Origin: Deltaproteobacteria bacterium
GTDB lineage: Bacteria > Myxococcota_A > UBA9160 > SZUA-336
Assembly: GCA_031396695.1 (NCBI GenBank)
Contig: JANNLG010000016.1
Location: 54,494 to 118,493 of the forward strand
Direction: 5' to 3'
DNA length: 64,000 nt
A model generated the notes under the pieces. That model saw only the letters and a program-made list of their open reading frames with translations, had not been told where the DNA came from and did not search any database. The position numbers and the translations under genes are program-made. This document shows positions 31,932 through 51,166 of the stretch, piece by piece; within the stretch, counting starts at the first letter, position 1; every line of letters starts with the position of its first letter.

Positions 31932-33256
31932 GAGGCACGCCGGCCGAGCTCGCCTTCGCGCGGCACTTCGCGGCCGCGCGGGTAGCGCAGGCGTCGCGCG
32001 AGCCGGCCTGGCTCGCCCGACACCGTGCGGAGTCGTTCGCCGCGTTCGAGGCGCAGGGTCTGCCGACCGCCAAGCACGAGGACTGGCGCTTCACGTCGCT
32101 CGCGAAGCTCGAGCAGATCGAGTTCACGGCGGGCGGAGTGGACGCGAGCGCGCCGACCGCGGAGCTCATCGCCGCTTCGCGAATCGCGCTGGGACCGGCA
32201 CACCGACTGGTGTTCGTGAACGGATGCTACGCGGCGCAGCTCTCCAGCGTCGGCGCGCTGCCTCCAGGCTGTCGCGTCGCCCCGCTCTCCGCGCTGCTCG
32301 GCTCGGACGGCGAAGCGGTCGAGCGCGTGCTCGCGAGCGCCGCCGAGCCCAAGCGGCGCGCGCTGGTCGACCTGAACTCCGCGCTGTGGAGCGACGGCGT
32401 GTTGATCGAGCTCGAGCCCGGTGCGGTGCTCGATCGTCCCGTGCACCTGCTCTTCCACCAGTCCGGAGCCGACGCCCCGGTCGGCGCCCACGTGCGCACG
32501 CTGATCGCGGCCGGCGCAGGTAGCCGCGGCACGATCGTGGAGCAACACAGCGGCGAGACGCGCCATCCCGACCTGACGAACGCCGTGACGGAGATCCGCG
32601 CCGATCGCGGCGCGCAGCTCGACCACGTGCTGGTCCAGGACCTTCCCGAGCAGAGCACCGCGTTCAGCGCGCTGCTGTCGCGCCAGGAAGCGCAGAGCCG
32701 GCTCGGCTTGCACGCGTTCACGCTCGGCGCCGCGCTCGCGCGCGCCGAGGTCGAGAGCCGGCTCGAGGGCGAAGGCGCGGAGCTCGCGCTCTACGGCCTG
32801 TACCTCGGACGCGGCACGCAGCACCCCGACCAGCACACCACGATCGACCACGCCGCGCCGCGCACGAACAGCCGCGAGCTGTTCAAGGGCATCCTCGACG
32901 AGCGCGCGCATGGCGTCTTCCACGGCCGCATCCACGTGCGGCCCGACGCGCAGAAGATCAGCGCGGACCAGACCAATCGCGCGCTCCTGCTCTCGGACCG
33001 CGCGACGATCAACAGCAAGCCGCAGCTCGAGATCTACGCCGACGACGTGAAGTGCAGCCACGGCGCGTCGATCGGCCAGCTCGACGACGAGCAGCTCTTC
33101 TACCTGCGCGCGCGCGGACTCGATCTCGCGACGGCGCGCGCGCTGTTGACCGTCGCGTTCGCCAGCGAAGTGCTCGAGAAGCTGCCGCACGATGGCTTGC
33201 GCGCGTCGCTCGAGCGCGCGCTGCTCGGCTGGCTGCCGAGCGGAGGCGGAGCATGA
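31928..33256 (+). CDS. sufD: Fe-S cluster assembly protein SufD
   Basis: Position after sufC with ATGA overlap. C-terminal SufB/D-family conservation (DQTNRALLLSDRATINSKPQLEIYADDVKCSHGASIGQLD). Confidence 0.8.
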
Positions 33257-34476
33257 GCGCGCTCGACGTCGAAGCGCTGCGCAAACAGTTCCCGATCCTC
33301 GCGCGCCGAATCCACGGCAAGCCGCTCGTCTATCTGGACAGCGCGGCGTCGAGTCAGAAGCCGGCCTGCGTGATCGAGGCGATCGCCGACTACTACGGCC
33401 GCTACCACTCGAACGTCCACCGCGGCGTGCACACGCTCTCCGAGGAAGCCACCGCGGCTTACGAGCACGCGCGCGCGAAGGTGCGCGACTTCGTGCGCGC
33501 GCAGTCTTCGCGCGAGATCGTGTTCGTGCGCGGCACGACCGAGGCCATCAACCTGGTCTCGCAGGCGTGGGCGCGACCGCGGCTCCGCCCGGGCGACGAG
33601 GTGCTCGTGACCGAGCTCGAGCACCACTCGAACATCGTGCCTTGGCAGATCGTGTGCGAGCAGACCGGCGCCAAGCTCGTGGTCGCGCCGATCGACGAGC
33701 GCGGCGACGTGATCCCCCAGGAGTACGCGCGGCGGCTCGGCGAGCGCACGCGCGTGGTCGCGCTCGCGCACGTCTCGAACGCGCTCGGCAGCGTGCTGCC
33801 GGTGGCGGAGTTCGCGCGCCAGGCGAAGTCCGTCGGCGCGCTGGTGGTCGTCGACGGCGCGCAGGGCGTTCCGCACATGCCCGTCGACGTTGGCGCGTTG
33901 GGCTGCGACTTCTACGCGTTCTCGGGTCACAAGATGTACGCACCGACGGGCATCGGTGCGCTGTTTGGACGGCTCGAGCTGCTCGATGCGATGGAGCCGT
34001 GGCAGGGCGGCGGCTCGATGATCCGCAGCGTCTCGTTCGCGAAGACCACCTTCGCGAGCTCACCCGAGCGCTTCGAAGCCGGCACGCCCAACATCGAAGG
34101 CGCGATCGGCCTGGGCGTCGCGATCGAGTGGCTCGAGCGGCTCGACTTGTCAGCCGTTCACGCGCACGAGGCGGATCTGATCGCGTACGCGACCGCGTCG
34201 CTCTCGGCGATCCCGGGCGTGCGCTTGATCGGGGATCCACGCGAGCGCGCGGGCGCGGTGTCGTTCGTGGTCGGCGACGTACACGCACACGACGTCGGCA
34301 CGATCCTCGACGGTGAAGGCATCGCGATCCGCGCGGGACACCACTGCGCGCAGCCGGTGATGGACCACTTCGACGTGCCCGCCACCGCGCGCGCGTCGTT
34401 CGCGGTGCACAACGGCCGCGACGACGTCGATCTTCTGGTCGCCGGCGTTCGCCGCGTGCAGGAGATCTTCGCCTGA
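33253..34476 (+). CDS. sufS: Cysteine desulfurase SufS
   Basis: Class II aminotransferase/desulfurase: PLVYLDSAASSQKP, SGHKMY (PLP Lys), HHCAQP active-site Cys region; ATGA overlap. Confidence 0.85.
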   Translation: MSALDVEALRKQFPILARRIHGKPLVYLDSAASSQKPACVIEAIADYYGRYHSNVHRGVHTLSEEATAAYEHARAKVRDFVRAQSSREIVFVRGTTEAINLVSQAWARPRLRPGDEVLVTELEHHSNIVPWQIVCEQTGAKLVVAPIDERGDVIPQEYARRLGERTRVVALAHVSNALGSVLPVAEFARQAKSVGALVVVDGAQGVPHMPVDVGALGCDFYAFSGHKMYAPTGIGALFGRLELLDAMEPWQGGGSMIRSVSFAKTTFASSPERFEAGTPNIEGAIGLGVAIEWLERLDLSAVHAHEADLIAYATASLSAIPGVRLIGDPRERAGAVSFVVGDVHAHDVGTILDGEGIAIRAGHHCAQPVMDHFDVPATARASFAVHNGRDDVDLLVAGVRRVQEIFA

Positions 34477-34928
34477 TGTCCGATCTGCGCGAGCTGTACC
34501 AGGAGGTCATCCTCGACCACACCAAGCGCCCGCGGAACTTCGGGACGCTCGAGCACGCGACCCATCGCGCGCAGGGACACAACCCGCTGTGCGGCGATCA
34601 GCTCGCGCTGTTCGTCGAAGTCGAAGGCGACCGCCTGCGCGACGTGAGCTTCGCGGGCCGCGGCTGCGCGATCTCGACCGCGTCCGCATCGCTTCTGACC
34701 GAAGCGTTGAAGGGCAAGACCACCGCCGAGGCGCACGCGCTGTTCGAGCGCTTCCACGCGGCCGTGACGTCGTCGTCCGACCAGCCGATCGACGTGGCGG
34801 GTCTCGGCAAGCTCGCGGTGCTCGCGGGCGTTCGCGAATTCCCCATGCGCGTGAAGTGCGCGAGCCTGGCCTGGCACACGCTCGAGGCCGCGCTCGCCCG
34901 ACGCGCCGAGCCCGTGTCGACGGAGTAG
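34476..34928 (+). CDS. sufU: SUF system NifU-family Fe-S assembly protein SufU
   Basis: HNPLCGDQL..., GRGCAIS and the third Cys (KCASLA), typical of SufU; TGATG overlap with sufS. Confidence 0.8.
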   Translation: MSDLRELYQEVILDHTKRPRNFGTLEHATHRAQGHNPLCGDQLALFVEVEGDRLRDVSFAGRGCAISTASASLLTEALKGKTTAEAHALFERFHAAVTSSSDQPIDVAGLGKLAVLAGVREFPMRVKCASLAWHTLEAALARRAEPVSTE

Positions 34929-34931
34929 ACC

Positions 34932-35270
34932 ATGAGCATGGATTCGATCGAGACCCGAGACCCCGCGACCGAGGCCCTGCGCGAGAGCGTGATCGAGGTG
35001 CTGCGCAGCATCTTCGATCCCGAGATCCCGGTGAACATCTACGAGCTCGGGCTGGTGTACGGCATCGAGATCGGCGAGGAGAACCACGTGAAGGTGCGCA
35101 TGACGCTCACCTCGCCCATGTGCCCCGTCGCCGAAAGCCTTCCCCCCGAAGTCGAGCAAAAGGTCCGCCAGATCCCCGGCGTCGCCCACGCCGAAGTCGA
35201 CCTCACCTGGGAACCCACCTGGAACCCTTCCATGATGTCCGAAGCCGCGAAGCTCCAACTCGGCTTCTAG
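34932..35270 (+). CDS. sufT: SufT/DUF59 (MIP18-family) Fe-S assembly protein
   Basis: DPEIPVNIYELGLVY...VKVRMTLTSPMCPVAE motif of DUF59. Confidence 0.75.
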   Translation: MSMDSIETRDPATEALRESVIEVLRSIFDPEIPVNIYELGLVYGIEIGEENHVKVRMTLTSPMCPVAESLPPEVEQKVRQIPGVAHAEVDLTWEPTWNPSMMSEAAKLQLGF

Positions 35271-38087: not shown

Positions 38088-38258
38088 GCTCGAATGAATC
38101 CTTTCCCGGCCGTCTCACCAACCGGCAACTCCACTAGTTGCACACGGCAAACGTTTCCACCCGACCGAGCGCCCCCCTAAACAGTCTTTGCTTCAACCCC
38201 GTCGTCCCCGACGCCGAAGCAGTGATGTCGGGGGGTTACCCCCCGGGGGAGAGCCGTT

Positions 38259-39248
38259 TTGGGGATCCGCGTCACTGCGCGGAACTGGATCGCGCGCTGC
38301 GCGCTGGCCGCTCTCTGCTTGCTCGCCGCCTCCGACGCGTTCGCGCTCGGCACGCCCGCGGGTACGGTCGTCACCAACACGGCGACCGTCACGTACGTGG
38401 TCGGCGCGAGCGCGTACACGCAGAGCGCGAACTCGGCTTTCACGGTCGACGAGCGCGTCGACGTCGTCGTCACCTGGCAGGACGCGGCGCCGGTAGCGGT
38501 CGCACCCGCGGACGTCGATCGGCTGCTCACGTTCCTGCTCACGAACGCGGGCAACGGCAACGAGGCGTTCGCGCTGGTGGTCGACGCGCTCGTGCTCGGC
38601 GACCAGTTCGATCCGACCAACGCGCGAGTCTACATCGACAGCAACGCTTCGGGCGTCTACGAGCCCGGCGTCGATCCGCTCTACGTGGCCGGCGTGAACG
38701 ATCCGCTGCTCGCCGCGGACGCCTCGCGGCTCGTGTTCGTGCTCGCCGACATCCCCCCGGCGACCCTGAACGGCGAGCGCGGCGACGCGGAGCTCGAGGC
38801 GACCTCGCTCAGCGGCGGCGTCACGGGCACGATCGTCGCGGGCGCCGGCGACGGCGGCACCGATGCGGTGATCGGCGGCGGCACTAGCGCCGTGATCGGC
38901 AGCTACCTCGTCTCGGATCTGTTCGTCTCGATCGCGAAGACCGCGGTCGTGACGGATCTCGGCGGCGGCGCCACGCCCGCGCCTGGCTCGACCATCACCT
39001 ACACGCTGGTCGTCACCCCGAACGGCACCGGCACGCTCGCGAACGTGGTGATCACGGACGCCTTGCCACCGTTCACCAGCTACGTCGCGGGCTCGCTGAC
39101 GCTCGACGCCGTCTCGCTCACCGACGCCGTCGACGGCGACGCGGGCGACTTCGGCGGCACCACCGCGAATCAAGTCACCGTCGCGCTAGGGAACGTGGCC
39201 GGCGGATCTCTCCCCCAGACAATCACGTTCGCAGTCACGATCGACTAG
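38259..39248 (+). CDS. Secreted DUF11 ('conserved repeat domain') protein
   Basis: TTG start (ORF track); signal peptide ARCALAALCLLAASDAFA; GTVVTNTATVTYVV motif; Thr/Val/Gly/Asp-rich beta-repeat composition. Confidence 0.55.
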   Translation: MGIRVTARNWIARCALAALCLLAASDAFALGTPAGTVVTNTATVTYVVGASAYTQSANSAFTVDERVDVVVTWQDAAPVAVAPADVDRLLTFLLTNAGNGNEAFALVVDALVLGDQFDPTNARVYIDSNASGVYEPGVDPLYVAGVNDPLLAADASRLVFVLADIPPATLNGERGDAELEATSLSGGVTGTIVAGAGDGGTDAVIGGGTSAVIGSYLVSDLFVSIAKTAVVTDLGGGATPAPGSTITYTLVVTPNGTGTLANVVITDALPPFTSYVAGSLTLDAVSLTDAVDGDAGDFGGTTANQVTVALGNVAGGSLPQTITFAVTID

Positions 39249-39259
39249 GAGGGAATGCC

Positions 39260-39754
39260 TTGAAACATGTAGTTGCTTTGGGTCTTTCGATTCTGCTCTT
39301 CGCTGAGAGCGCGCACGCGGTCGAAACCGCGGGAGACACCGCAGTCGAGATCAAGATCACGGCCGAGATAGAGGTCACGGTGAAGACCGCGGACGGGCGC
39401 GAGGAAGTGAAGCGCATGCCCGCGGCCAAGGTTCCGCCCGGCACGGCGGTGATCTACACGCTCAATGCGAAGAACACCAGTGCGGCGCCCGTGGCCGACG
39501 TGGTGATGACGGACCCGATCCCGGCCGAGATGGAGTACGTCGACGGCTCGGTCAGCGCCGCGGATGCGCGCGTCACGTTTTCCGTCGACGGCGGCAAGAG
39601 CTTCGCGACCAAGGAGTCCCTGAAGGTGAAGGGCGAGGACGGCGCGATGCGCGCGGCGCTCCCCGCCGACTTCACGCACATCCGTTGGCAGCTCGAGAAG
39701 CCGCTCGCGCCGGGCGAAGTCCGCGCGGTCAGCTTCCGTGCGCGCGTGGAGTGA
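39260..39754 (+). CDS. Small secreted DUF11-like protein
   Basis: Signal peptide MKHVVALGLSILLFAESAHA; PGTAVIYTLNAKNTS... single repeat domain. Confidence 0.55.
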   Translation: MKHVVALGLSILLFAESAHAVETAGDTAVEIKITAEIEVTVKTADGREEVKRMPAAKVPPGTAVIYTLNAKNTSAAPVADVVMTDPIPAEMEYVDGSVSAADARVTFSVDGGKSFATKESLKVKGEDGAMRAALPADFTHIRWQLEKPLAPGEVRAVSFRARVE

Positions 39755-39852
39755 TTGAGTGAGTTCCCCCCCCTGAAAAGGCGGAAGCGTCGGCACACGC
39801 TGCAGTGCCCGGTCGAGTTGAGTTGAGTTGGAAATACTGCAAGGAGAAGGCA

Positions 39853-40920
39853 ATGTTGAGGCATGACTTGAAACGATTGGCGAGTTCGCTCGCCGCCGCT
39901 GCGCTCTTGTGGAGCGCGGCGGACACCGCATCGGCCGTGGGCGCCGACGCGGGCATCACCGTCTCGAACACGGCATCGGTGGTCTACACCGTGAACGCCG
40001 TGCTTCAGCCGGCAGTGGCGAGCAACGCGGCCGACTTCGTCGTCGACCGCCTGGTCGATCTGACGGTGACGGCGATCGGGGTGACCTACACCTCCGTGAC
40101 GCCGGCGACGAACGGGGCGTTCCTGTTCTCGGTCGCAAACATCAGCAACGCCACCCTCGGGTTCAACCTGAGCGCGGCCAACAACGCGACGGATCCGTTC
40201 GGCGGCACCGACAACTTCGACCCGACTACGCTCACGGCGGTCGTCGATACGGGTGTCATCGGAACCTACGAGCCGGGCACCGACGTGGCGACCACGATGG
40301 ACACGGTCGCCGAGGACGGAACCTTCGGCGTGTGGATCGTCGCGGCGATCCCGGGCGGTCAGGGCAACCTCGACATCGCGGCGGTCACGCTGACCGCGAC
40401 GGCGCGCGAGCCGGGTATCGGCGGCGCGGCGCTCACCGAGGAAGTCAACCCGGAGAACCCGCTGGTCATGGAGACCGTGTTCGGCGACGGCGCGGGTGAC
40501 ACCGACGCGGTGCAGGACGCGGCCTTCTCGGACAGCGGCGCCTATCAGGTGGCTTCTGCGGACGTCACGATCACCAAGACCGAGACGCTGCTCAGCGACC
40601 CGATCAACGGTGCCGCGCCGAACGCACGCCACATTCCGGGTGCACTCGTCGAGTACGTGGTGACGGTCACCAACGACGCGGGCTCCGCGTTCCCCGCGAC
40701 CACGCTCACCATCAGCGACGTGCTGCCGGGTGACGTCACGTTCGCGCCGGATACGTACGGGATTGGCTCGGGCATCGACCTCGACGGCGCGCCGCAGACC
40801 AACGCGGCGGACTCGCCGACCGACGAGAGCTCGTTCGCAGCCGGAACGGTGACCGTGACCGTGCCGTCACTCGCAGCGGGCGCCTCTGCGGTCATCACCT
40901 TCCAGGTGACGGTGAACTAG
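39853..40920 (+). CDS. Secreted DUF11 repeat protein
   Basis: ATG 39853 preceded by AAGGAGAAGG; signal peptide LAAAALLWSAADTASA; GITVSNTASVVYTV motif; paralogous to 38259..39248. Confidence 0.55.
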   Translation: MLRHDLKRLASSLAAAALLWSAADTASAVGADAGITVSNTASVVYTVNAVLQPAVASNAADFVVDRLVDLTVTAIGVTYTSVTPATNGAFLFSVANISNATLGFNLSAANNATDPFGGTDNFDPTTLTAVVDTGVIGTYEPGTDVATTMDTVAEDGTFGVWIVAAIPGGQGNLDIAAVTLTATAREPGIGGAALTEEVNPENPLVMETVFGDGAGDTDAVQDAAFSDSGAYQVASADVTITKTETLLSDPINGAAPNARHIPGALVEYVVTVTNDAGSAFPATTLTISDVLPGDVTFAPDTYGIGSGIDLDGAPQTNAADSPTDESSFAAGTVTVTVPSLAAGASAVITFQVTVN

Positions 40921-41138
40921 CCACCGGCTAGCTCTCGATGGTGAGCCCCCTCCCCCCAGTGCCGCGGCACGTCGAGTGCCCGCGCGCCGGCCTACATGGC
41001 GGCGCGACGGGAGACTTGCGTTCGCGCACCGGGAACGGGCGCTCACCGGACCGCGACCATGCGGTTCGCACGTTGTGCCTCAACGAACCGGCTGCGACGG
41101 GAAAGCCCCGCCGCAGCCGGTTCCGCGAGGCGCTGGTG

Positions 41139-44100
41139 ATGCTCGCGCTCACCGTGCTTCTGTTTCCGTTCAGCGCACGCGCGCAGACACCCGCGGGCAC
41201 GCCGATCCCGAACACGGGCTACGCGACCTACGACATCGGCGCCACCACCGGAATCGTCCGGCCGTCGAACACGCTGGTCATCACGACCGCCGCGTTCGGA
41301 ACCAGTTCGAGCCTGGAGTTCATGCGCTATGCGCCCGGCGCTCCCGGCTCGATCACCTACGCCGTCTCGCCCACGCAGTGCTTCACGGGCGGATCGTTCA
41401 GCGCCCTGCCCGCGCCCACCGCGTACGGCGGCGGCGTGATCAACCTGGCCAACGTCGAGCTCGAGCTCACGTCGAGCTACCACCCGGGTGAGCCGGTCTT
41501 CGTGCGGCTGGTCGACGCGGATCAGAACCTGAATCCCGCGCTCGCCGAATCGATCCTGGTCACGCTCGCGACACCGAGCGTCGCGGACGTCGAGCAGCTG
41601 CAGCTCTTCGAGACTGGCGTGAACACGGGCATCTTCGTCGGCTACGTGCCCACGGCGGCGCCACCGGCGCCGGCGAACGACTGCGTGCTCGCCGCTCCGT
41701 CGGGTCAGACCGTCACCGGCAGCTACACCGATGCGAGTAACGCCGCGGACACCGATACCGACAGCGCGCTGATCGACCCCGAGAGCCGGGTCTTCGACAG
41801 CACGAACGGCTCGCCGGTCGACGGCGCGACCGTGACCCTGATCGACGACGCCACCGGACTGCCCGCTGCGGGCATCCTCGGCGACGACGGTCTCTCCGCC
41901 TTCCCCGCCACGCTCACCAGCGGCGGCTCGGTCACCGATGGCGGCGGGCAGATCTACAACTTCGGCCCGGGCGGCTACCGCTACCCGGTCGTTCCCGCGG
42001 GCAGCTATCGACTGCAGGTGACGCCGCCCGCCGCGTACACGTTCCCGAGCGGTGTGGCCGACGCCACGCTGCAGACCTTGCCCGGCGCACCGTTCGCGCT
42101 CGCGCTCGGCTCGCGCGGCGAAGTCTTCGCCGTGCCGGTCGGTCCGACCTTCCAGCTCGATCTGCCGGTCGACACCGCGTCGGGCTTCGGCTTCATCTCG
42201 ATCGACGCCAGCCGCGACGTGGTCTCGCTCGGCGAGCACTTCCAGTTCGACGTGCGCGTCGAAAACCCGGGCGTGCTCGGAGCGCCGCTCGGCGTCGACG
42301 TGACCGTCGTATTGCCGCTCGGCATCCGCTTCCTGCCCGGCAGCGTGCGCATCGACGACGGCAAGCAGCCCGATCCGGTGATCTCGCCGGACGGCCGCAC
42401 CCTGACCTGGACGCTACCCGCGAGCGCGCTCCCCGTCGTGACACACATCCGGTTCACCGTGAAGGTCGGGCCGAGCGCCGAGATCGGCCTCACGCGCACC
42501 ACCGCGCGCGCGCAGGCGCTGGGCGGAACGAGCACCGAGGACGCCGTCGCCACGGTGCGGGTCGTCGAGGACCTGGGCGCGAACAACTCCTACATCCTCG
42601 GCCGCGTTTCCGAGGGCGCCTGCGACACCGACGACTTCGGCGGCAAGGGCGTTTCGGGCGTGCGGGTGTACCTCGAGGACGGCTCGTTCTCGATCAGCGA
42701 CTCGAACGGCTACTACCACTTCGCCGGCGTCGTTCCCGGCGCGCACGTGGTGCAGATGGACGTGCAGAGCCTGCCCGGCTTCTACGAGCCGCTGCCGTGC
42801 GCGAAGGACGAAGGCCAGGCCTTCGCCGGCCGGCCGTTCTCGCAGTTCGTCGAGATGCAGGGCGGAACGATGTGGCGCAGCGACTTCCGTGTGCAGATGC
42901 GCGCGCGCGCGCAGGGCGGCATCAGCCAGCGGCTCGAGAGCCAGCTCGTCGGCGACACCATCCACTATCAGCTCGCGCTGCGCGGCAACGGCGTGGCCGT
43001 GCGCAATGCGCGTGCGATGGTGATGCTGCCCGAGGGCGTCCAGTTCGTGCCCGGCAGCACGCGCGACGCGGGCGCGCCGATGGCGGATCCCGAGTTCAAG
43101 GACGGCGTGCTCGTCTACCGGCTCGGCGAACACACCGAAGACAACTGGACGCTGGATCTCACGTTCGATGCGAAGCCCACGGGCCCGAGCGAGCGCCAGC
43201 TCGAGACGTCGTCCGTGGTGATGTTCGAGACGCCGGTCGAGAAGATCGGCAGGACGCCCGTCGCGAAGACGTTCCTTTCCGGCGAGTCGAGCTCGGGCAG
43301 CGGCATCCAGGTGGTCGAGACGCTCGGCCTGCGGCCGGGTGAGGATTGGAACTCGGTCACGACGCCCGCACCCGACGTCACGCCCGTGAAGCCCAGGGTG
43401 TTCAACAAGGCCTGGCTCGAGCAGGCGCAGCCGGGCTTTGCGTGGCTGTCGCCCGAGCCGGGCTTCGCCGCCGCGATCGCGAGCGTGAACATCGCCATTC
43501 AGCACGCGCCCGGCACCACACTCGAGCTGACGCAAAACGGCGTCGCGGTGCCCAAGTTCAACTTCGAGGGCGAGTTCTCCAACAACGCCAAGACCGTCTC
43601 GCTGTCGCGCTGGCGCGGCGTGGATCTGGTCGACGGCGAGAACGCCTTCGTGGTGCGCGCGCTCGACGCGCAGGGCAACGAAGTCGAGCGCTTCGAGCGC
43701 GGGCTTCACTTCGCCGGTCCGCCGTTCCGTGCCGAGCTCGTGCCCGAGCTCTCCAAGCTGGTGGCCGATGGCACCACGCCGCCGGTGATCGCCGTGCGCT
43801 TCACCGACGAGGACGACAAGCCCGCGCGCGAAGGACAGGTCGGCACGTTCCAGGTCGAGGCACCGTACCGCCCGAACCTCGAGCCCGCGCTGCGCGAGCT
43901 GAAGCGTCAGGCGGGCCAGCCGCCCGAGTTGCCGAGCTACGCGATCGGTCAGGACGGCATCGCGCTGATCGAGCTCGCGCCCACCACCACTTCCGGACGC
44001 GTGAACCTCCGCTTCGCGCTGGCCGGCAACCACGAGAAGAAGCTCCACCCCTGGCTCGAGGCGACCGCGCGCGAGTGGGTGCTGGTCGGCCTGACCGGTG

Positions 44101-46640
44101 GCACGCTCATGTACGACTCGGTCTCGGAGCACAGCGAGAGTCTCGTGCCGGGCGGCGTCGAGGACGGCTACGACCTCGACCGCGGCACCACCGTGTTCGC
44201 CAAGGGCCGCGTGAAGGGCTCGTGGCTGCTCACCGCCGCCTACGATTCGCGCCGCGAGTCGTACGAGTCGTCGAACGACATCGACCGCGCCGCGCTCGAA
44301 GGCGGTCTCGATCCGAACCAGTACTACACACTGTACGGTGACGAGACCACGCAGGGTTTCGAAGCGCCGAGCCAGCGCAAGCTGTACGTGAAGCTCGAGC
44401 GCAAGCAGTTCTACGCGCTGTTCGGCGACTTCCAGACCGGCCTCACGGTCACCGAACTGTCGCGCTACAACCGCAGCCTGAACGGTTTCCACACCGAGTA
44501 CGACGGCGACTACGTGAGCTTGAACGCGTTCGGCACCGACACCAGCCAGGCCTTCGTGCAGGACGAGATCCGCGGCGACGGCACGTCGGGCCTGTACCGG
44601 CTCTCGCGCCGCGAGATCGTGCTTAACAGCGAGACGGTATCGATCGAGATCCGCAATCGCTTCCACGGCGAGCAGGTGATCTCGACCGAGAACCAGGTGC
44701 GCTGGGTCGACTACAACATCGACTACAGCTCGGGCACGATCTTCTTCAAGCGGCCGATCCCGAGTACGGGCGAGGGCTTCAACCCCGTCTTCATCGTGGT
44801 GGAGTACGAGGCCGACGACGACTCGGACGAGGAGATCAACGGCGGCGGACGCGCGGCCGTGAAGCTGTTCGACGACAACGTCGAGCTCGGCACCTCGCTG
44901 ATCCACGAGGGCACGGTCGGGCAGACCTCGAGCCTGTACGGCAGCGATCTGCGCATCGACCTCGACGCCTCCACCAGCCTGCGCGGCGAGTACGCGATGA
45001 CGCGCTCGGCGCTGCTCGACTCGGACCTGGATCCAAACGGTGGCGCGTGGCTCGCGGAGCTTTCGCGCCGCGATCGCGATCTCGACTCGCGCGTGTACTG
45101 GCGCGAGCAGCGGCCGGGCTTCGGGCTCGGCCAGCAGAGCGCGAGCGAAACGAACATGCAGCAACTCGGCCTGGACGCGCGCTATCGCCTCTCCGACTCG
45201 CTCTCGCTCTCGGGCGAGGCGTTCCGCCAGGTCGACAGCGCCTCCGACGCGCGCCGCGATCTGTTCCAGGGCCGCGTCGATCACCACGAGGGACCGGTCA
45301 GCGCCTACGGCGGCCTGCGCTTCGCGCACGACGTGTTCTCGGACGGTGAGGACGCGTCGTCGCCGCAGGCGCTCGGCGGGGGCAGCTACACCCTGTACCA
45401 GAACCGACTGAAGCTGCGCGCCGACACGGAAGTGACGCTCTCGGGCGACGAGAGCCTCGACTTCCCGACGCGCTTCCTGGTCGGCGCGGACTTCGAGCTG
45501 CTGCCCGAGCTGACCGTGTTCGGCGAGGAGGAGTTCACGCTCGCCAGCGAGCGCAGCACCGCTTCCACGCGCGTGGGCTTGCGCACGAGCCCGTGGTCCG
45601 GCGGCCAGGCCACCGCGGCGATCGGCCAGCGCAGTCAGCAAGACAGCGCGCGCCTGTTCGGCACGCTCGGCCTGTTGCAGACCTATCAGCTCAGCGACGC
45701 GCTTTCGTTCGACTTCGCGGTCGACAACTCCGTGACACTCTCCGGTGACGACACGGCCGCGACCTCGATCTCGCCGTTCGCGCCCAACCAGCCGGTGAAC
45801 TTCGGCCTGGCCGGCAACGCGCAGGGCGACGACTTCACCTCGGTCTCCGTGGGCACCACCTACGCACAGGAGCTGTGGGCCGCGAACCTGCGCCTGGAGA
45901 CGCGGATCGGCAACGTGCAGGACAAGTGGAGCATCACCGCGGGCGCCTACCGCGAGCTCGCCGAGGGCATCGGCGTGGCCGTGCGCGCCGAATTCTTCGA
46001 CGCCAGCGGCTCGAGCTCCTCGCTCACCACCGGACCGGACGCGACCTCCGGCCCGGTCTACAGCTCCGACGGCAGCTTGCGCCCGAACACCGCCTACGAC
46101 GGCATCGAGTCGCTCGGCAAGCTGCGCGTGTCGGCGGTGTACCGTCCGATCGGCGGCCGCTACACGCTGCTCGAGTCACTCGAGCTGCGCAACGAGCGCC
46201 TGGACGACGCCGTCTTCCAGAGCAGCGCCACGCGCATCGTCAACAACATGAACCTGAACATCAAGCTCGATCGCAAGACGCAGGCTTCGCTGCAGTACGG
46301 CGCGAAGTACCTGCTCGAAGAGATCGACGGCGAGAACCTGCGCGGCTACACCGACGTGACGGGCCTCGAGCTGCGCCGCGCTCTGTGGGGGAGCTGGGAC
46401 GTCGGCGGCCGCGTGGGCATGCGCCACTCCTGGAGCGACGCCAACATCCAGGAGCTGTACGGCGTGTCGCTCGGATACATCCTGATGAAGAACATGTGGG
46501 TGAGCGCGGGCTACAACTGGGAAGGCTACCGAGACTCGGACTTCTCGGAAGGCGAGTGGACGAGCCGCGGGCCGTACATCTCGTTCCGGTACAAGTTCGA
46601 TCAGGAGACGGTGAAGGAGCTGCTCGACTGGGCGGAATAG
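41139..46640 (+). CDS. Giant (1834 aa) surface protein: signal peptide, DUF11-like repeats, carboxypeptidase-regulatory/SdrD-B-like segment, large C-terminal beta-rich domain
   Basis: Start taken at the ATG giving MLALTVLLFPFSARAQTP; upstream in-frame codons from 40938 lack signal character. Contains GTPIPNTGYATYDIGA DUF11 motif and SDSNGYYHFAGVVPG (CarboxypepD_reg-like). The C-terminal ~900 aa is Tyr/Gly/Ser/Asp-rich with alternating hydrophobics, consistent with a beta-barrel or beta-sandwich. Confidence 0.6.
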   Translation: MLALTVLLFPFSARAQTPAGTPIPNTGYATYDIGATTGIVRPSNTLVITTAAFGTSSSLEFMRYAPGAPGSITYAVSPTQCFTGGSFSALPAPTAYGGGVINLANVELELTSSYHPGEPVFVRLVDADQNLNPALAESILVTLATPSVADVEQLQLFETGVNTGIFVGYVPTAAPPAPANDCVLAAPSGQTVTGSYTDASNAADTDTDSALIDPESRVFDSTNGSPVDGATVTLIDDATGLPAAGILGDDGLSAFPATLTSGGSVTDGGGQIYNFGPGGYRYPVVPAGSYRLQVTPPAAYTFPSGVADATLQTLPGAPFALALGSRGEVFAVPVGPTFQLDLPVDTASGFGFISIDASRDVVSLGEHFQFDVRVENPGVLGAPLGVDVTVVLPLGIRFLPGSVRIDDGKQPDPVISPDGRTLTWTLPASALPVVTHIRFTVKVGPSAEIGLTRTTARAQALGGTSTEDAVATVRVVEDLGANNSYILGRVSEGACDTDDFGGKGVSGVRVYLEDGSFSISDSNGYYHFAGVVPGAHVVQMDVQSLPGFYEPLPCAKDEGQAFAGRPFSQFVEMQGGTMWRSDFRVQMRARAQGGISQRLESQLVGDTIHYQLALRGNGVAVRNARAMVMLPEGVQFVPGSTRDAGAPMADPEFKDGVLVYRLGEHTEDNWTLDLTFDAKPTGPSERQLETSSVVMFETPVEKIGRTPVAKTFLSGESSSGSGIQVVETLGLRPGEDWNSVTTPAPDVTPVKPRVFNKAWLEQAQPGFAWLSPEPGFAAAIASVNIAIQHAPGTTLELTQNGVAVPKFNFEGEFSNNAKTVSLSRWRGVDLVDGENAFVVRALDAQGNEVERFERGLHFAGPPFRAELVPELSKLVADGTTPPVIAVRFTDEDDKPAREGQVGTFQVEAPYRPNLEPALRELKRQAGQPPELPSYAIGQDGIALIELAPTTTSGRVNLRFALAGNHEKKLHPWLEATAREWVLVGLTGGTLMYDSVSEHSESLVPGGVEDGYDLDRGTTVFAKGRVKGSWLLTAAYDSRRESYESSNDIDRAALEGGLDPNQYYTLYGDETTQGFEAPSQRKLYVKLERKQFYALFGDFQTGLTVTELSRYNRSLNGFHTEYDGDYVSLNAFGTDTSQAFVQDEIRGDGTSGLYRLSRREIVLNSETVSIEIRNRFHGEQVISTENQVRWVDYNIDYSSGTIFFKRPIPSTGEGFNPVFIVVEYEADDDSDEEINGGGRAAVKLFDDNVELGTSLIHEGTVGQTSSLYGSDLRIDLDASTSLRGEYAMTRSALLDSDLDPNGGAWLAELSRRDRDLDSRVYWREQRPGFGLGQQSASETNMQQLGLDARYRLSDSLSLSGEAFRQVDSASDARRDLFQGRVDHHEGPVSAYGGLRFAHDVFSDGEDASSPQALGGGSYTLYQNRLKLRADTEVTLSGDESLDFPTRFLVGADFELLPELTVFGEEEFTLASERSTASTRVGLRTSPWSGGQATAAIGQRSQQDSARLFGTLGLLQTYQLSDALSFDFAVDNSVTLSGDDTAATSISPFAPNQPVNFGLAGNAQGDDFTSVSVGTTYAQELWAANLRLETRIGNVQDKWSITAGAYRELAEGIGVAVRAEFFDASGSSSSLTTGPDATSGPVYSSDGSLRPNTAYDGIESLGKLRVSAVYRPIGGRYTLLESLELRNERLDDAVFQSSATRIVNNMNLNIKLDRKTQASLQYGAKYLLEEIDGENLRGYTDVTGLELRRALWGSWDVGGRVGMRHSWSDANIQELYGVSLGYILMKNMWVSAGYNWEGYRDSDFSEGEWTSRGPYISFRYKFDQETVKELLDWAE

Positions 46641-46665: not shown

Positions 46666-48018
46666 CTAGTGGCCTCGCAGGCTGGATTGGGAGATCTGGC
46701 GCGCGAGCTTCTTCTCGTCGGTCGGGATGGATACCGCGTTCCACTGCTCGCTGCGTACGGAGTCCTGGTTGCTCCAGTCGATCAGTGCGCTGCCGACGCC
46801 GTCGATCACGCGGACCGGGCGCGTCGGGTCGTCGGCCCAACGGGGATAGTCCTCGCGGTCTTCGCTCCAGCGTCCGACGAAGTAGCCGAGTCCGCCTTGC
46901 GTCGAGCCGTCGCGGTAGGCGGCGTAGTAGAGCGGGAAGAGCGTCTGCAGGTCCAGGTACCAGACGTAGCGGCGTACGCCGTCGCCGAACGAGCCTTGCT
47001 TCAGGCGTCCTTCGATCACGAGCGCACGGCGTAGCTCCCAGCGGTCGTTCGCGAACGACACGCCCGCGGGACCGAAGCCGCGCGACTTGTCCTCGGGGTA
47101 GATCGGCGCGCGCGCGTTGATCGGCGCGAGCACGTCGCGCACGCCGACGAGCCTCCAGTCATGGAGCTGCGGTGACTCGCCGTGCAAGAACAGGCCGTCG
47201 CCGATGCTCGCGTCCACGAGACAGCCGGTGAGCGGCGACTCGGAGTCGGGAGCGGTCGCCCGACTCACCTTGCGCGCGGCTCCGTTCCAGACGAAGAAAT
47301 CCGGCAGCCGGTTGCCACTGTCGTACTGCCGGAAGGCGCACTCTCCGCCGGTGTCCAGGTTGCGCGACGCGCCGCCCGCCGCCCACAGCGCGCGGGTCGA
47401 GGACGGAAAGCGGAAGTCCTCGCTCTCGCGATCCGCGCGCCCAACGAGCGGCACGAAGAAGTAGTCGCCGGTGAATCGCTGCTGCAGATCCTTCGCGAGC
47501 AGGCTGATCCGATACTCGCCGAAGCTGCCGCCCGCCTGGTAGCGCGAGACCCAGTTCCACGCCCAGCGCAGCGCAGCCTGTGGATCGTTCGGATCGATCG
47601 AGTCGGGCGCGAACGGCAGACCCGCGCGGTGGTTCTCGAGCTCGCCCTCGGGCGTGAGCCGCGCCTCGCCGCGGAAACGCTCCGTCACCTTCGCGAAGAA
47701 CTCCGGCGGCGCGTAGTCGCGATAGCACGGGCCGATCTCCAGATGCATCCCGTCGTAGAAGAAGCGCTCGCGGTTGGCCCACAGCTCCTCGGGCACGTAG
47801 CCCTGCAGCGCTTCGGTCTTCTTCTCGTCGAGCACCTCGCCCACGCGAAACGGCGGCGGCACCGCGTCCGCGCCGGGACGCACGAGCGCGCCGGTGGTCT
47901 CACACGACCCCTCCGCGGGAATCGCCCATGGATCGGCCGGCTCGGCCGCGATCGACCCGGCCGAAGAGACGAGCGCGATCCAACACACGAGCGTCGCTCC
48001 GCGCCTGCATTCGAGCAT
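46666..48018 (-). CDS. Secreted hypothetical protein (possibly DUF1329/LolA-like)
   Basis: ATG 48018 with GGAGG RBS; signal peptide TLVCWIALVSSAGSIAA; 450 aa. Family assignment is uncertain. The rest of the 46666..48582 ORF is shadow. Confidence 0.5.
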   Translation of the reverse strand: MLECRRGATLVCWIALVSSAGSIAAEPADPWAIPAEGSCETTGALVRPGADAVPPPFRVGEVLDEKKTEALQGYVPEELWANRERFFYDGMHLEIGPCYRDYAPPEFFAKVTERFRGEARLTPEGELENHRAGLPFAPDSIDPNDPQAALRWAWNWVSRYQAGGSFGEYRISLLAKDLQQRFTGDYFFVPLVGRADRESEDFRFPSSTRALWAAGGASRNLDTGGECAFRQYDSGNRLPDFFVWNGAARKVSRATAPDSESPLTGCLVDASIGDGLFLHGESPQLHDWRLVGVRDVLAPINARAPIYPEDKSRGFGPAGVSFANDRWELRRALVIEGRLKQGSFGDGVRRYVWYLDLQTLFPLYYAAYRDGSTQGGLGYFVGRWSEDREDYPRWADDPTRPVRVIDGVGSALIDWSNQDSVRSEQWNAVSIPTDEKKLARQISQSSLRGH

Positions 48019-48066
48019 CGAGCCCTCCTCGTGCGGGGACGATAGCGGGCGGGATACGATGCGGTC

Positions 48067-49281
48067 ATGACGACACCCTCCGATCCGTTTCTCGGCGCGA
48101 ACCCGCTCGATCCCGCGTTCCGCGCCGATCCGCACCCGGCGCTGAAGCGCCTGCGCGAGACCCACCCCGTACACGAGACGGTGATCGGGCTGTGGCGGCT
48201 CTCGCGCTACGCGGACTGCGTTCGGCTGCTGCGCGACGCGCCGACGGGCGTGCGCCTCTCCGACGGCACGCGGCCGGGGCAGGACCGCATCCCCGCCGCG
48301 CTCGGCTCGTTCGGGCAATTCATGCTGCAGCAGGATCCGCCCGCGCACACGCGCCTGCGGCGGCTGGTGTCGAAGGCGTTCACGCCGCGCGCGATCGAGC
48401 GCCTGCGCGCGCACGTGCAGAAGCTCGCCGACTCGCTCGTCGAGCGCGCGCTCGAGCGCGGCGAACTCGACGCGATCGCCGATCTCGCGCTGCCCGTTCC
48501 GTCGACCGTGATCTGCGAGATGATGGGCGTCCCGCTCGCCGACCGCGAGCGCTTCACGCAGTGGACCGCGCACTCGACCCACCTGCTGGCCGCGTTCGCC
48601 GCGCCACCCGACGTGCTCGAGCGCGGCGTCGCCGCCTCGCAGGCGCTCGCGAGCTACTTCGAGGCGCTGATCGCGGAGCGCCGCAAGTCACTCGGCGACG
48701 ATCTGCTCTCGAACTTGATCCGCGCCGAGGAGGCCGGGGATCGGCTGTCGCCGCAAGAGCTGCTCTCGCAGTCGATCGGCCTGTTGATCGCGGGCTTCGA
48801 GACCACGATCGGCCTGATCGGGAACGGCCTGCTCCAGCTCCTGCGCCACCCCGCCGAGCTCGCCAAGCTGCGCGCGAACCCGGGCCTGATCGGATCCACC
48901 GTCGAGGAATGCCTGCGCTTCGACGGCCCGATCCTGCTCACCGTGCGCATCACCCAAGACGAAGTTCGCTTCGGCGAGCAGGTGATCCCGAAGGACCGCA
49001 TGGTGATGGCGCTGCTCGCCGCAGCGAATCGCGATCCCGAGGTGTTCCCCGACCCCGAGCGCTTCGACATCGAGCGCACGCCCAACGAGCACATGGCCTT
49101 CGGCGGCGGCACTCACTTCTGCCTGGGCGCGCACCTGGCGCGCATGGAGGCGCAGGCCGCGATTGGCGCGCTGGTGCGCCGCTCGTCGAAGCTCGAGCTC
49201 GTGTCGGACCAGCTCGAGTGGGGTCAGTCGCTGTTCCGCGTGCTCGGCAAGCTGCCGCTGCGGGTCACGCCGGCGCGCTGA
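48067..49281 (+). CDS. Cytochrome P450
   Basis: Heme-binding loop FGGGTHFCLGAHLAR, EXXR (ECLRFDGP), I-helix AGFETT. Confidence 0.85.
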   Translation: MTTPSDPFLGANPLDPAFRADPHPALKRLRETHPVHETVIGLWRLSRYADCVRLLRDAPTGVRLSDGTRPGQDRIPAALGSFGQFMLQQDPPAHTRLRRLVSKAFTPRAIERLRAHVQKLADSLVERALERGELDAIADLALPVPSTVICEMMGVPLADRERFTQWTAHSTHLLAAFAAPPDVLERGVAASQALASYFEALIAERRKSLGDDLLSNLIRAEEAGDRLSPQELLSQSIGLLIAGFETTIGLIGNGLLQLLRHPAELAKLRANPGLIGSTVEECLRFDGPILLTVRITQDEVRFGEQVIPKDRMVMALLAAANRDPEVFPDPERFDIERTPNEHMAFGGGTHFCLGAHLARMEAQAAIGALVRRSSKLELVSDQLEWGQSLFRVLGKLPLRVTPAR

Positions 49282-51166
49282 CGAAGCCGGCGGACGCGAG
49301 CTCCGTGCGCAGCGCGGAGCCGGGGGCGAGCAGGCGGATCAGCGCCTGCACGGCGGGGCGCTCGAGCCGCCGCTTCGGCACCACGAAATCGTAGTGCTCG
49401 AAGCGCAGCGGGCGAAAGCGCAGTCCCGACTCGCGCGCGACGCTCTCGATCGTCACACCCCAGTCGGCCCGGCCTTGCGCGACCGCCGCCGCGACCGCGT
49501 TGTGCGAACGCGGCTCGTAAGCGAAGCCGTCGGGACGCCGACCGCCGAGCAGACCGTCGATCAGCACGCGCGTGCCGCTGCCGCGATTGCGGTTCACCAT
49601 ACGCAAGCTCGTGTCGGCGACGAGCGCCTCCGTGGGCCTGCGCTCGTCCTCGCGCGTCACCACGCCCTGCATGCGCAGGTAGCCGGGCACCAGGGCGAGA
49701 GACTCGTCGAGGAACGGCGTGTTGTAGGTGTCGGTGGACGGATCGAGCAGGTGCGCGGGCGCGACGTCGCACTCGCCGCGGCGCGCGGCCTCGATCCCGC
49801 CCTGCGAGCCGACCGCGAGCAGCTTCACCGAGAAGCCCTCCGCGTGCAGCGCGCGCGCGATCCGATCCAGGCCCGTGCAGTGGCTGCCGATCACGACCAG
49901 GTCCGCCGGCTCGAGCGAGGGGCCGAGCAGAATCACCTCGACTTCCGTGTCCGCCTCGACGATCTCGAGGTTGCGACCCAGCCGCACGAAGCCGTCGGCG
50001 CGGCTCCAGGTCGTGACGCTGCCGCTGCCCTTTCCCATCGGGTACGCGCCGAGCTCGCCGCCTTCGCCCCGCACCAGCCCGACCAGCAGATACTCGAGCC
50101 GCCCGCGCTCGGTGTGGGTGCGCAGCGCGAGCTTCGCGCGCACCGCCTCGGAGCGCAGCGGCGGCGCGCCCGCCAGCCGGCGCAGCACCGGCGCGACGAA
50201 TTCGTGGAACGTGAACACCGCCGAGGTCGGGAAGCCGGGCAGGATCACGACGGGCTTTCCGTGGTGCGCGGCCAGGCAGATCGGCTTGCCGGGCTTGAGC
50301 GCCACGCCGTGCACGAGGATGCCCGGCTCGAGCTCCGCGACCACGCGGTACGAGAGGTCACCCTCGCCTTTCGACGTGCCGCCCGACAGAACCACCGCGT
50401 CGCACGCGGCGAGGCCCCGCTCGAGCGCGCGCCGCAGCGCGGATTCCTCGTCGCGGAACGCGCCGAAGAAGACCGGCTCGCCGCCGAGCTCGCGCACGGC
50501 GTCGGTGATCATGCGCCCGTTCGAATCGAACACGAGCCCCGGGCGCATCGCGTCGCCCGGGTCGATGATCTCGTCGCCGGTCGAGATCACCGCGACGCGC
50601 GGCTTGCGCACCACCGGAATGCGCGCGGCGCCGATCGCCGCCAGCACGCCGGTCTCGCGAGAGGAGAGGCGCTGGCCCGCGAACAGCACGGTCTCGCCCA
50701 GGCCGATATCGGTGCCCGCGAACGAGACCGCCGCGCCGGGCACGCGCGCCGCGCGCACCACCACGATCCGGTCGCCGTCTTCGACGTCGGTCATCTCCAC
50801 GGGCACGACCGCGTCGGCGCCGCGCGGCAGCATGCCGCCGGTCGCGATCGGCGTCGCCGTGCCGGGCTCCACACTGAGTCGCGGGTGGACACCGGTGGGG
50901 ATCGACTCGTCGTTTCGGCGCAGGCGCACCGGCTCGAGCTCGCTCGCGCCGTAGGTGTCCTGCGCGCGCACCGCGAAGCCGTCCATGTTCGAGCGGTCGA
51001 AGCTCGGCACGTCGACGGGCGCGCGCACTTCGCCGGCGAGCACGCGGTCGAGCGCGATCTCGAGCGGGATCTCCTCGCTGTCGAGCCGCGCGAGCGCGAG
51101 CGCGGCGTGCCAGCGCTGCTCGGCGACGTCGCGGTCGAGCACCTCGAGAAACTGCTCCTGCTTCAC
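49265..51166 (-). CDS. moeA: Molybdopterin molybdo/tungsto-transferase MoeA fused to C-terminal PBP-like domain
   Basis: MoeA N-terminal and MoCF-binding domains (VLSGGTSKGEGD) followed by a ~230-aa periplasmic-binding-protein-like domain. GTG start overlaps the upstream moeA stop (GTGA). Confidence 0.7.
   Translation of the reverse strand: MKQEQFLEVLDRDVAEQRWHAALALARLDSEEIPLEIALDRVLAGEVRAPVDVPSFDRSNMDGFAVRAQDTYGASELEPVRLRRNDESIPTGVHPRLSVEPGTATPIATGGMLPRGADAVVPVEMTDVEDGDRIVVVRAARVPGAAVSFAGTDIGLGETVLFAGQRLSSRETGVLAAIGAARIPVVRKPRVAVISTGDEIIDPGDAMRPGLVFDSNGRMITDAVRELGGEPVFFGAFRDEESALRRALERGLAACDAVVLSGGTSKGEGDLSYRVVAELEPGILVHGVALKPGKPICLAAHHGKPVVILPGFPTSAVFTFHEFVAPVLRRLAGAPPLRSEAVRAKLALRTHTERGRLEYLLVGLVRGEGGELGAYPMGKGSGSVTTWSRADGFVRLGRNLEIVEADTEVEVILLGPSLEPADLVVIGSHCTGLDRIARALHAEGFSVKLLAVGSQGGIEAARRGECDVAPAHLLDPSTDTYNTPFLDESLALVPGYLRMQGVVTREDERRPTEALVADTSLRMVNRNRGSGTRVLIDGLLGGRRPDGFAYEPRSHNAVAAAVAQGRADWGVTIESVARESGLRFRPLRFEHYDFVVPKRRLERPAVQALIRLLAPGSALRTELASAGFVSAPA

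Follow-up and report, generated by a model that had tools for sequence, protein, structure and literature searches.

Four adjacent plus-strand genes, here named P1 to P4, probably encode a modular surface fibre in which hairpin complementation would connect the subunits and intermolecular isopeptide bonds would probably lock them. They are located in a 64,000-nucleotide window of contig JANNLG010000016.1 from a Deltaproteobacteria bacterium of the Myxococcota_A, and all positions given below are those of this window. Near-identical proteins in the databases point to an uncultured member of the Myxococcota as the host. A probability of about 0.6 is assigned to this reading, which was derived from the sequences. 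The original prediction had described the region as a tandem paralogous family of secreted DUF11 proteins followed by a giant protein. The open reading frames confirmed three consecutive plus-strand genes for products of 329, 164, and 355 amino acids (aa) with the giant open reading frame next to them, and a Sec-type signal peptide could be read from the sequence of all four proteins. The term “family” suits P1 and P3, which are full-length paralogues with 32% identity (E 3e-17, BLASTP), but makes the set look more uniform than it is. P2 is an acceptor-only protein, and its alignment with P1 was limited to the DUF11 core. P4 is a donor-only protein with a predicted barrel, the N-terminal motif is the sole segment it shares with P1 and P3, and its DUF11-like and CarboxypepD_reg-like domains are internal.

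In the proposed mechanism, the N-terminal hairpin of a subunit would, after Sec export, supply the strands missing from the C-terminal domain of the subunit before it (donor-hairpin complementation), and a Lys-Asn isopeptide bond would then form spontaneously between the two chains and lock them. The outcome would be a polar head-to-tail chain of the order cap <- (P1/P3)n <- P4, with P2 as the candidate distal cap and a two-domain tip adhesin at this place in other genomes. The hairpin of P4 would end the fibre and tie the chain covalently to an outer-membrane barrel, and the assembled product would have the topology of one giant fibrillar adhesin that runs N-to-C and has been ligated from separate pieces. 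It may be speculated that the P4 barrel is also the export conduit out of the periplasm and would then act as an usher analogue that anchors itself.

The evidence starts from the domain itself. DUF11 (PF01345) is now named CLIPPER in Pfam, after a 2025 study of a CnaA-like sandwich of nine strands that is held by an intramolecular Lys-Asn isopeptide bond, with Asp as catalyst (PMC12617251; structure PDB 9IFR, domain 708-828, with the residues Lys715, Asp748, and Asn806). The C-terminal CLIPPER domain of P1, P2, and P3 stops after strand 7, and none of these three proteins contains Lys, Asp, and Asn in one contiguous nine-strand domain. All homologues of P1, P2, and P3 end a few residues past ...TITF.V.I(D/N) or ...FRGVVK, which is the strand that precedes the Asn-bearing strand in complete domains. 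The missing part seems to be found at the other end of the chains. The motif G(T/I)..(T/S)NTA(T/S)V.Y is carried by P1, P3, and P4 and is located right behind the site of signal-peptide cleavage in about 75 to 81 related loci, far above chance. It had been predicted to be common to the three smaller proteins and to open the mature part of the giant one. This is correct for P1, P3, and P4, but the motif is absent from the 164-aa P2, in the window as well as in the related loci.

Rather than a family signature, the motif corresponds to the detached last two CLIPPER strands including the isopeptide Asn. In a canonical tandem CLIPPER array, that of locus L020, the sequence ...LSITATVDV-GTAGATITNTATVTA...SNNSDSIDIVV-... 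leads into DLAIGKT of the next domain. Since this junction matches the C-terminus of P1 (...TITFAVTID-stop) together with its mature N-terminus (LGTPAGTVVTNTATVTY...SANSAFTVDE), the motif was assigned to CLIPPER strands 8 and 9. The signal-peptidase site falls where a loop would link strand 7 to strand 8. An AlphaFold2 (AF2) model of mature P1, built from a 69-sequence alignment, had a mean predicted local distance difference test score (pLDDT) of 94.9 and a predicted template modeling score (pTM) of 0.77. It contained a two-strand hairpin at the N-terminus (residues 8-19 and 22-33), followed by a middle domain of nine strands and a C-terminal domain of seven; the seven strands of the latter and the two of the hairpin thus add up to the nine of CLIPPER. 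The metagenomic protein P0242 (1335 aa) is a natural fusion in which an acceptor-type end and the donor motif are connected in cis (...YFELSFIGHIL|VGTPAGSILN...). P0242 itself opens with a donor motif and closes with an acceptor domain, with several repeat domains inserted.

Membership of the DUF11 family was evaluated with hidden Markov models (HMMs) at cut-offs of 24.6 bits for Pfam PF01345 and 24 bits for TIGR01451. P1 scored 26.6 and 44.6 bits with the two models, respectively, P2 27.9 and 43.7 bits, and P4 27.0 bits with TIGR01451. Complete P3 remained just below both cut-offs (24.5 and 22.3 bits), and its C-terminal domain alone was a clear DUF11 domain with 31.4 bits. All four proteins consequently match the family, as had been predicted, P3 clearly only as an isolated domain. 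The fold is that of a CnaA-like beta-sandwich. 9IFR was recovered by fold comparison only; a phmmer search with an acceptor-donor chimera against the PDB sequences gave no meaningful match, and a Foldseek search with the P1 model against the PDB yielded only generic multi-immunoglobulin (Ig) “legs” (integrin alpha, Saf) with template modeling scores of 0.2 to 0.3, which is uninformative.

The residues required for an isopeptide bond are divided between the two termini of the subunits in a conserved manner. The acceptor Lys and Asp were present in all P1 proteins (82/82 each) and all P3 proteins (76/76 each) across the loci, although the same domain has no Asn strand after them. The donor Asn was found in 74 of 79 P1, 75 of 76 P3, and 72 of 74 P4 proteins. 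P4 does not possess a truncated acceptor, and its internal DUF11-like domains are complete and without the triad, as read from the sequence. P2 has no donor motif. It contains Lys in 8/82 and Asp in 10/82 loci, and Asn occupies the position of the Asp in 71/82; P2 of the clade of the window retains both Lys42 and Asp85. The loss of Lys and Asp from most P2 lineages indicates that the P2 joint would usually be non-covalent.

To evaluate complementation in silico, acceptors were joined to donors and these chimeras were aligned with canonical full domains by the Smith-Waterman algorithm, with shuffled donors as controls. Addition of the donor increased the score by +32 for the P1 acceptor, +50 for that of P3, and +29 for that of P2, compared with a mean of +0 to +12 (standard deviation 1.6-5.5) for the shuffled donors. 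The alignments continued across the junction and placed Lys, Asp, and Asn in register with the canonical CLIPPER domains, and that of the P3 chimera extended from end to end. The same approach with the Pfam model extended the match from HMM position ~58-84 to 98 of 114, with gains of 0 to +7 bits. The best case was P2 plus the P1 donor, which rose from 28.5 to 35.5 bits with a match reaching HMM position 98. Because the gains were small and a reversed donor was equal to the real one in the case of P1, the Pfam test is weakly supportive.

The arrangement of the genes is also conserved. A scan of the GTDB species genomes yielded at least 391 confirmed matching stretches, and an exhaustive HMMER search gave 263 protein clusters at E <= 1e-30, almost all of which are 310-360 aa long and align from end to end. 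Gene order was inspected in 81 related loci. The order P1-P2-P3-P4 on one strand was kept in 73 of them, and the contigs of the other 8 carried only some of the four genes. The hosts include members of the Myxococcota, Sphingomonadales, Woeseiaceae, Steroidobacteraceae, Thiohalomonas, Eisenbacteria, Nitrospirota, and Desulfobacterota. The four-gene order spans six or more phyla, including Alpha- and Gammaproteobacteria, with flanking genes that vary by lineage, and cultured carriers include Sphingopyxis granuli, S. solisilvae, Sphingomonas gilva, and S. aquatica. The HMM matches, the paralogy, and the synteny of the four genes support the predicted dedicated surface-assembly locus over scattered repeat proteins. 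An S-layer, which had been offered as one form of such an assembly, was rejected as a reading of P1-P4 since nothing specific supports it.

A fifth gene comes after P4 in many other genomes and is absent from the window. The encoded protein starts with a signal peptide, its N-terminal domain is a different one, and at the C-terminus it carries a truncated CLIPPER domain of the acceptor type, in which Lys and Asp are present and which ends in ...SSFTIRFRARIN*; the donor motif is absent. In the Sphingomonadales, the N-terminal domain opens with a conserved A.C.A.N.Y.F motif. By this domain composition, the fifth-gene products are candidate two-domain tip adhesins.

The C-terminal ~820 residues of P4 were conserved in every full-length locus according to a domain-level phmmer comparison. 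A variable P4 C-terminus, suggested by a BLAST coverage of ~58%, was dropped since phmmer revealed the barrel region in all full-length loci. An AF2 model of P4 residues 930-1834 (pLDDT 71.9) displayed ~32 consecutive long antiparallel strands after small beta domains, and the C-terminus of P4 is therefore predicted to be an outer-membrane beta-barrel of ~32 strands. This barrel was no closer to FimD than to other barrels, and P4 does not have the organization of a type Va autotransporter with a 12-strand C-terminal barrel, a Pfam Autotransporter match, and an N-terminal passenger. Many P4 homologues contain an OmpA domain (PF00691, peptidoglycan-binding) N-terminal of the barrel; the insertion point corresponds to a Pro-rich linker near residue 726 of the window P4 (counted from 41136; ~nt 43311). 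P4 of the window and of the Sphingomonadales is devoid of this domain.

Several observations weigh against the proposed fibre. The hairpin was modeled with a pLDDT of 88-96 in the AF2 monomer and might just pack against the chain to which it belongs. Ser or Ala replaces the donor Asn in a few P1 lineages, so that this residue is not fully invariant, and the Lys and Asp of P2 are lost in most lineages. In the Smith-Waterman test, no significant gain came from the P4 donor, and the P1 acceptor joined to a donor went from 29.6 to 29.2 bits in the Pfam test, with 29.4 bits for the reversed-donor control. The OmpA domain is normally periplasmic, and its position N-terminal of the barrel in many P4 homologues complicates a model with the N-terminus outside. 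Finally, no chaperone that would stop premature polymerization in the periplasm is evident.

In a variant of the same fibre, P2 would not be the cap but a periplasmic chaperone that reversibly shelters the donor hairpins until export, in reverse of the PapD logic. P2 is a single acceptor-only domain with Lys lost in ~90% of the loci and Asn in the place of the catalytic Asp, so that binding would be non-covalent and reversible, and the operon contains no other chaperone candidate. In the clade of the window, however, Lys42 and Asp85 would trap P2 covalently, and P2 has no similarity to PapD-like chaperones in Pfam. Moreover, the donor-strand-complemented joints of chaperone-usher pili are normally too stable for recycling. 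This variant is unlikely, albeit the alternative that deserves most consideration.

It is rather improbable that the four products are secreted DUF11 proteins of the surface or matrix that act independently, in essence the original prediction, with the motif as a conserved family segment that packs on the first domain of its own chain without complementation or cross-linking. All four do carry a signal peptide and belong to DUF11, AF2 folds the P1 monomer confidently with the hairpin included, and the Pfam chimera test is weak for P1. This explanation would nevertheless leave four facts unexplained: the precise stop after strand 7 in every P1, P2, and P3 homologue, the invariant Lys and Asp in a domain without an Asn strand, the identity of the motif with strands 8 and 9 including the Asn, and the constant co-occurrence of acceptor-only and donor-only proteins in a fixed operon. 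P2 and the fifth-gene products are acceptor-only and P4 is donor-only; these proteins need partners in trans, which argues against independent proteins and also against complementation within one chain.

There is little to recommend an assembly that remains a periplasmic or envelope-spanning tether from the P4 barrel to peptidoglycan or the cell body. The OmpA domain of many P4 homologues would fit such a tether, as would the fact that all components are exported only by Sec and that the operon has no dedicated secretion system. This domain is missing, however, from P4 of the window and of the Sphingomonadales, the fifth-gene products resemble two-domain tip adhesins, and a ~32-strand barrel far exceeds the needs of an anchor. 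CLIPPER and CarboxypepD_reg stalk domains are, in addition, typical of extracellular adhesins (PMC12617251).

Least probable is a circularly permuted CLIPPER domain formed in cis, i.e., closed isopeptide-locked monomers without a polymer: the triad is present inside single P1 and P3 chains, a pTM of 0.77 means a fairly defined overall shape of P1, and AF2 commonly predicts strand-exchange pilins as self-complemented “closed” monomers (PMC11821415), which counts for this option, but P2 and the fifth-gene products have acceptors without a hairpin, P4 has a hairpin without a truncated acceptor, and strand 9 continues directly into strand A of the domain that follows in canonical arrays, a geometry by which the hairpin would lie on the end of domain 1 that faces away from domain 2.

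The proposed fibre can be compared with known systems. P1-P3 share family and fold with the described CLIPPER domains, and Lys, Asp, and Asn are equivalent once acceptor and donor are joined. Described CLIPPER domains, however, consist of nine contiguous strands with an intramolecular bond and form long single-chain adhesins, whereas in P1-P4 the domain is split after strand 7 between two polypeptides and any bond would be intermolecular. The Gram-negative adhesins with a CLIPPER stalk (B9T28_05395; PMC12617251) have the same N-to-C layout of tip, CLIPPER stalk, and C-terminal envelope anchor, which is OmpA-like there. They are single chains, while the product of P1-P4 would be ligated post-translationally from four or five Sec substrates.

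A covalent system with a similar logic is BsaA of the TasA family from Clostridium perfringens, for which donor-strand exchange and an N-E-K isopeptide lock were shown by mutagenesis (bioRxiv 10.1101/2024.11.04.621531). In BsaA, and by prediction in P1-P4, an N-terminal strand with Asn enters the sheet of the neighbor, the acceptor provides Lys and an acidic catalyst, and the product is covalent and sortase-free. The fold is TasA/camelysin in BsaA but CnaA-like in P1-P4. Moreover, BsaA belongs to a monoderm with SipW processing and membrane anchoring, as opposed to a diderm system with several subunit types and a barrel anchor. P1-P4 had no TasA/camelysin (peptidase M73) match in Pfam, and only the logic of Asn, acidic residue, and Lys is common to both. 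The threads of Sulfolobus acidocaldarius (Saci_0406) combine donor-strand complementation with isopeptide links between subunits (PMC9715654). They are likewise Sec-dependent fibres that need no sortase, but they are archaeal homopolymers of another fold, and the bond connects the N-terminal amine to an Asn of subunit n+2.

With the chaperone-usher pili (Fim/Pap), P1-P4 would share incomplete Ig-like subunits completed by the next N-terminal extension, as the sequence comparisons suggest, an acceptor-only tip, a donor-only terminator or anchor, and a large barrel encoded in the operon. In contrast, P1-P4 contain neither a PapD-like chaperone nor an usher domain (PF00577) and the neighboring genes are unrelated; two strands instead of one would be donated, a covalent lock is predicted, and the barrel protein itself bears the terminating donor. 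Homologues of sortases, chaperones, or ushers were not found in the four proteins (Pfam/NCBIfam, E <= 1). The C-termini of P1, P2, and P3 (...AVTID, ...RARVE, ...QVTVN) have no sorting signal or hydrophobic tail and there were no sortase matches; sortase-dependent pili of the Gram-positive type would have an LPXTG-type signal at the C-terminus and a sortase gene. The type V pili of Bacteroidota are characterized by lipoprotein signal peptides and by a protease that removes an N-terminal strand; the signal peptides of P1-P4 end in AxA and have no lipobox Cys, and no FimA/Mfa-type matches were obtained in Pfam. Tafi, F-ENA, and the Litorilinea grappling hook were also considered because DUF11 or strand exchange is mentioned in the respective papers, but these are different systems.

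Cna-type domains that are cut ahead of the last strand or strands are known to reconstitute with spontaneous formation of a Lys-Asn/Asp bond across chains, as in isopeptag/pilin-C, SnoopTag/SnoopCatcher, and SpyTag/SpyCatcher. These pairs are laboratory constructs, whereas P1-P4 would be natural and encoded by an operon. The reading as a natural split isopeptide domain that would polymerize and anchor a diderm fibre is well supported by the sequence comparisons and is new as far as can be told. To our knowledge, covalently linked pili are regarded as a sortase-dependent speciality of Gram-positive bacteria, and the strand-exchange pili of diderms known to us, those of the chaperone-usher type and type V, are non-covalent. 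No published description of the P1-P4 operon was found in the literature, which was covered incompletely. The broader proposition is that P1-P4 are an undescribed class of diderm pili, with donation of a split-CLIPPER hairpin, an autocatalytic Lys-Asn lock between chains, no homologue of sortase, chaperone, or usher, and a giant barrel protein that terminates, anchors, and possibly exports the fibre. This proposition is tentative, with a chance not quite even.

If the proposed fibre exists, it would be a new self-locking, Sec-dependent route to surface fibres that is widespread in diderms, and it would explain the abrupt ends of many short DUF11 proteins. It would mean that nature uses the same trick of a split isopeptide domain that is behind the SpyTag-like tools, and the operons would represent a natural library of orthogonal Tag/Catcher pairs and possible new tools for protein ligation. 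The P4 barrel would be among the largest single-chain outer-membrane barrels known.

The positions of all features are listed in Table 1. The start codon of P4 is ambiguous and could be ATG at 40938, TTG at 41073, or ATG at 41139. The database record of an identical P4 (P0121, 1833 aa) starts at 41139. An upstream start is likelier because the signal peptide that results from the start at 41139 is without the charged n-region KPRRSRFR.

Table 1. Features of the P1-P4 locus and of related loci. Positions are those of the window unless another locus or protein is named; the roles of the proteins are those in the proposed fibre.
Feature	Position	Strand	Remarks
P1 leader, GC hairpin CGGGGGG-TTA-CCCCCCG	38229..38245	+	5' leader of P1 gene
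P1	38259..39248	+	329 aa, TTG start; donor-plus-acceptor subunit
P1 signal peptide	38259-38345	+	ends AFA
P1 donor hairpin (CLIPPER strands 8-9)	~38346-38444		Asn40 at 38376-38378
P1 middle domain	~38445-38918	+	
P1 acceptor, truncated 7-strand CLIPPER	38919-39245		Lys227 at 38937-38939; Asp267 at 39057-39059
P2	39260..39754	+	164 aa, TTG start; acceptor-only, single truncated CLIPPER domain
P2 signal peptide	39260-39319		ends AHA
P2 acceptor residues			Lys42 at 39383-39385; Asp85 at 39512-39514
P3	39853..40920	+	355 aa, ATG start; donor-plus-acceptor subunit, P1 paralogue
P3 signal peptide	39853-39936		ends ASA
P3 donor hairpin	from 39937		Asn39 at 39967-39969
P3 acceptor domain	~40537-40917		Lys242 at 40576-40578; Asp289 at 40717-40719
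P4	40938..46640	+	giant donor-only anchor protein, ~1,830-1,900 aa according to which start codon is used
P4 signal peptide			ends ARA
P4 mature N-terminus	41184		Gln
P4 donor hairpin	~41184-41291		Asn at 41211-41213
P4 stalk domains			complete DUF11-like and CarboxypepD_reg-like domains, between donor hairpin and barrel
P4 predicted beta-barrel	~44784-46592		
OmpA domain in P4 homologues	L004 P4 758-860		
OmpA domain in P4 homologues	P0163 748-850		
OmpA domain in P4 homologues	P0185 713-815		
Fifth gene	L001 17217-18395		
Fifth gene	L057 17636-18826		
Fifth gene	L022 17559-18719		
Fifth gene	L004 18534-20345		
Fifth gene	L012 8636-11716		
Fifth gene	L026 7946-8905		

The middle domain of P1 and its equivalent in P3 contain the invariant motifs TN(T/A)GNG, GD(Q/D)FDP, D.N..G.Y.PG.D.LY, and NDP, which look like calcium-binding loops of extracellular proteins.

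The genes that flank P1-P4 are on the opposite strand or unrelated. Judged by eye from the translations only, a suf-type gene set for Fe-S clusters is located upstream (33052-35270, plus strand) and a cytochrome P450 gene together with two MoeA-like genes downstream (46666-52434), and neither group appears to be related to the fibre operon.

The GC hairpin predicted in front of the first gene is present, but the coordinates of 38228..38244 given for it were off by one base. Its stem folds inside a structure of -23.1 kcal/mol formed by the leader 38215-38262. The Shine-Dalgarno-like run GGGGAGAG is located between the hairpin and the TTG at 38259; this run and an N-terminus MGIRV.AR.W that is conserved in close homologues make the predicted TTG start plausible. 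A search of Rfam gave no family match for the leader, and scans gave no terminator or promoter consensus. The leader 38190-38262, with CCGAAGCAGTGATrTCG, the G6-loop-C6 hairpin, and GGGGAG, is conserved in three loci of related Myxococcota (L006, L007, and L009), although the P1 proteins of these loci are only 59-76% identical. The P1 leader may be a regulatory or stabilizing RNA element.

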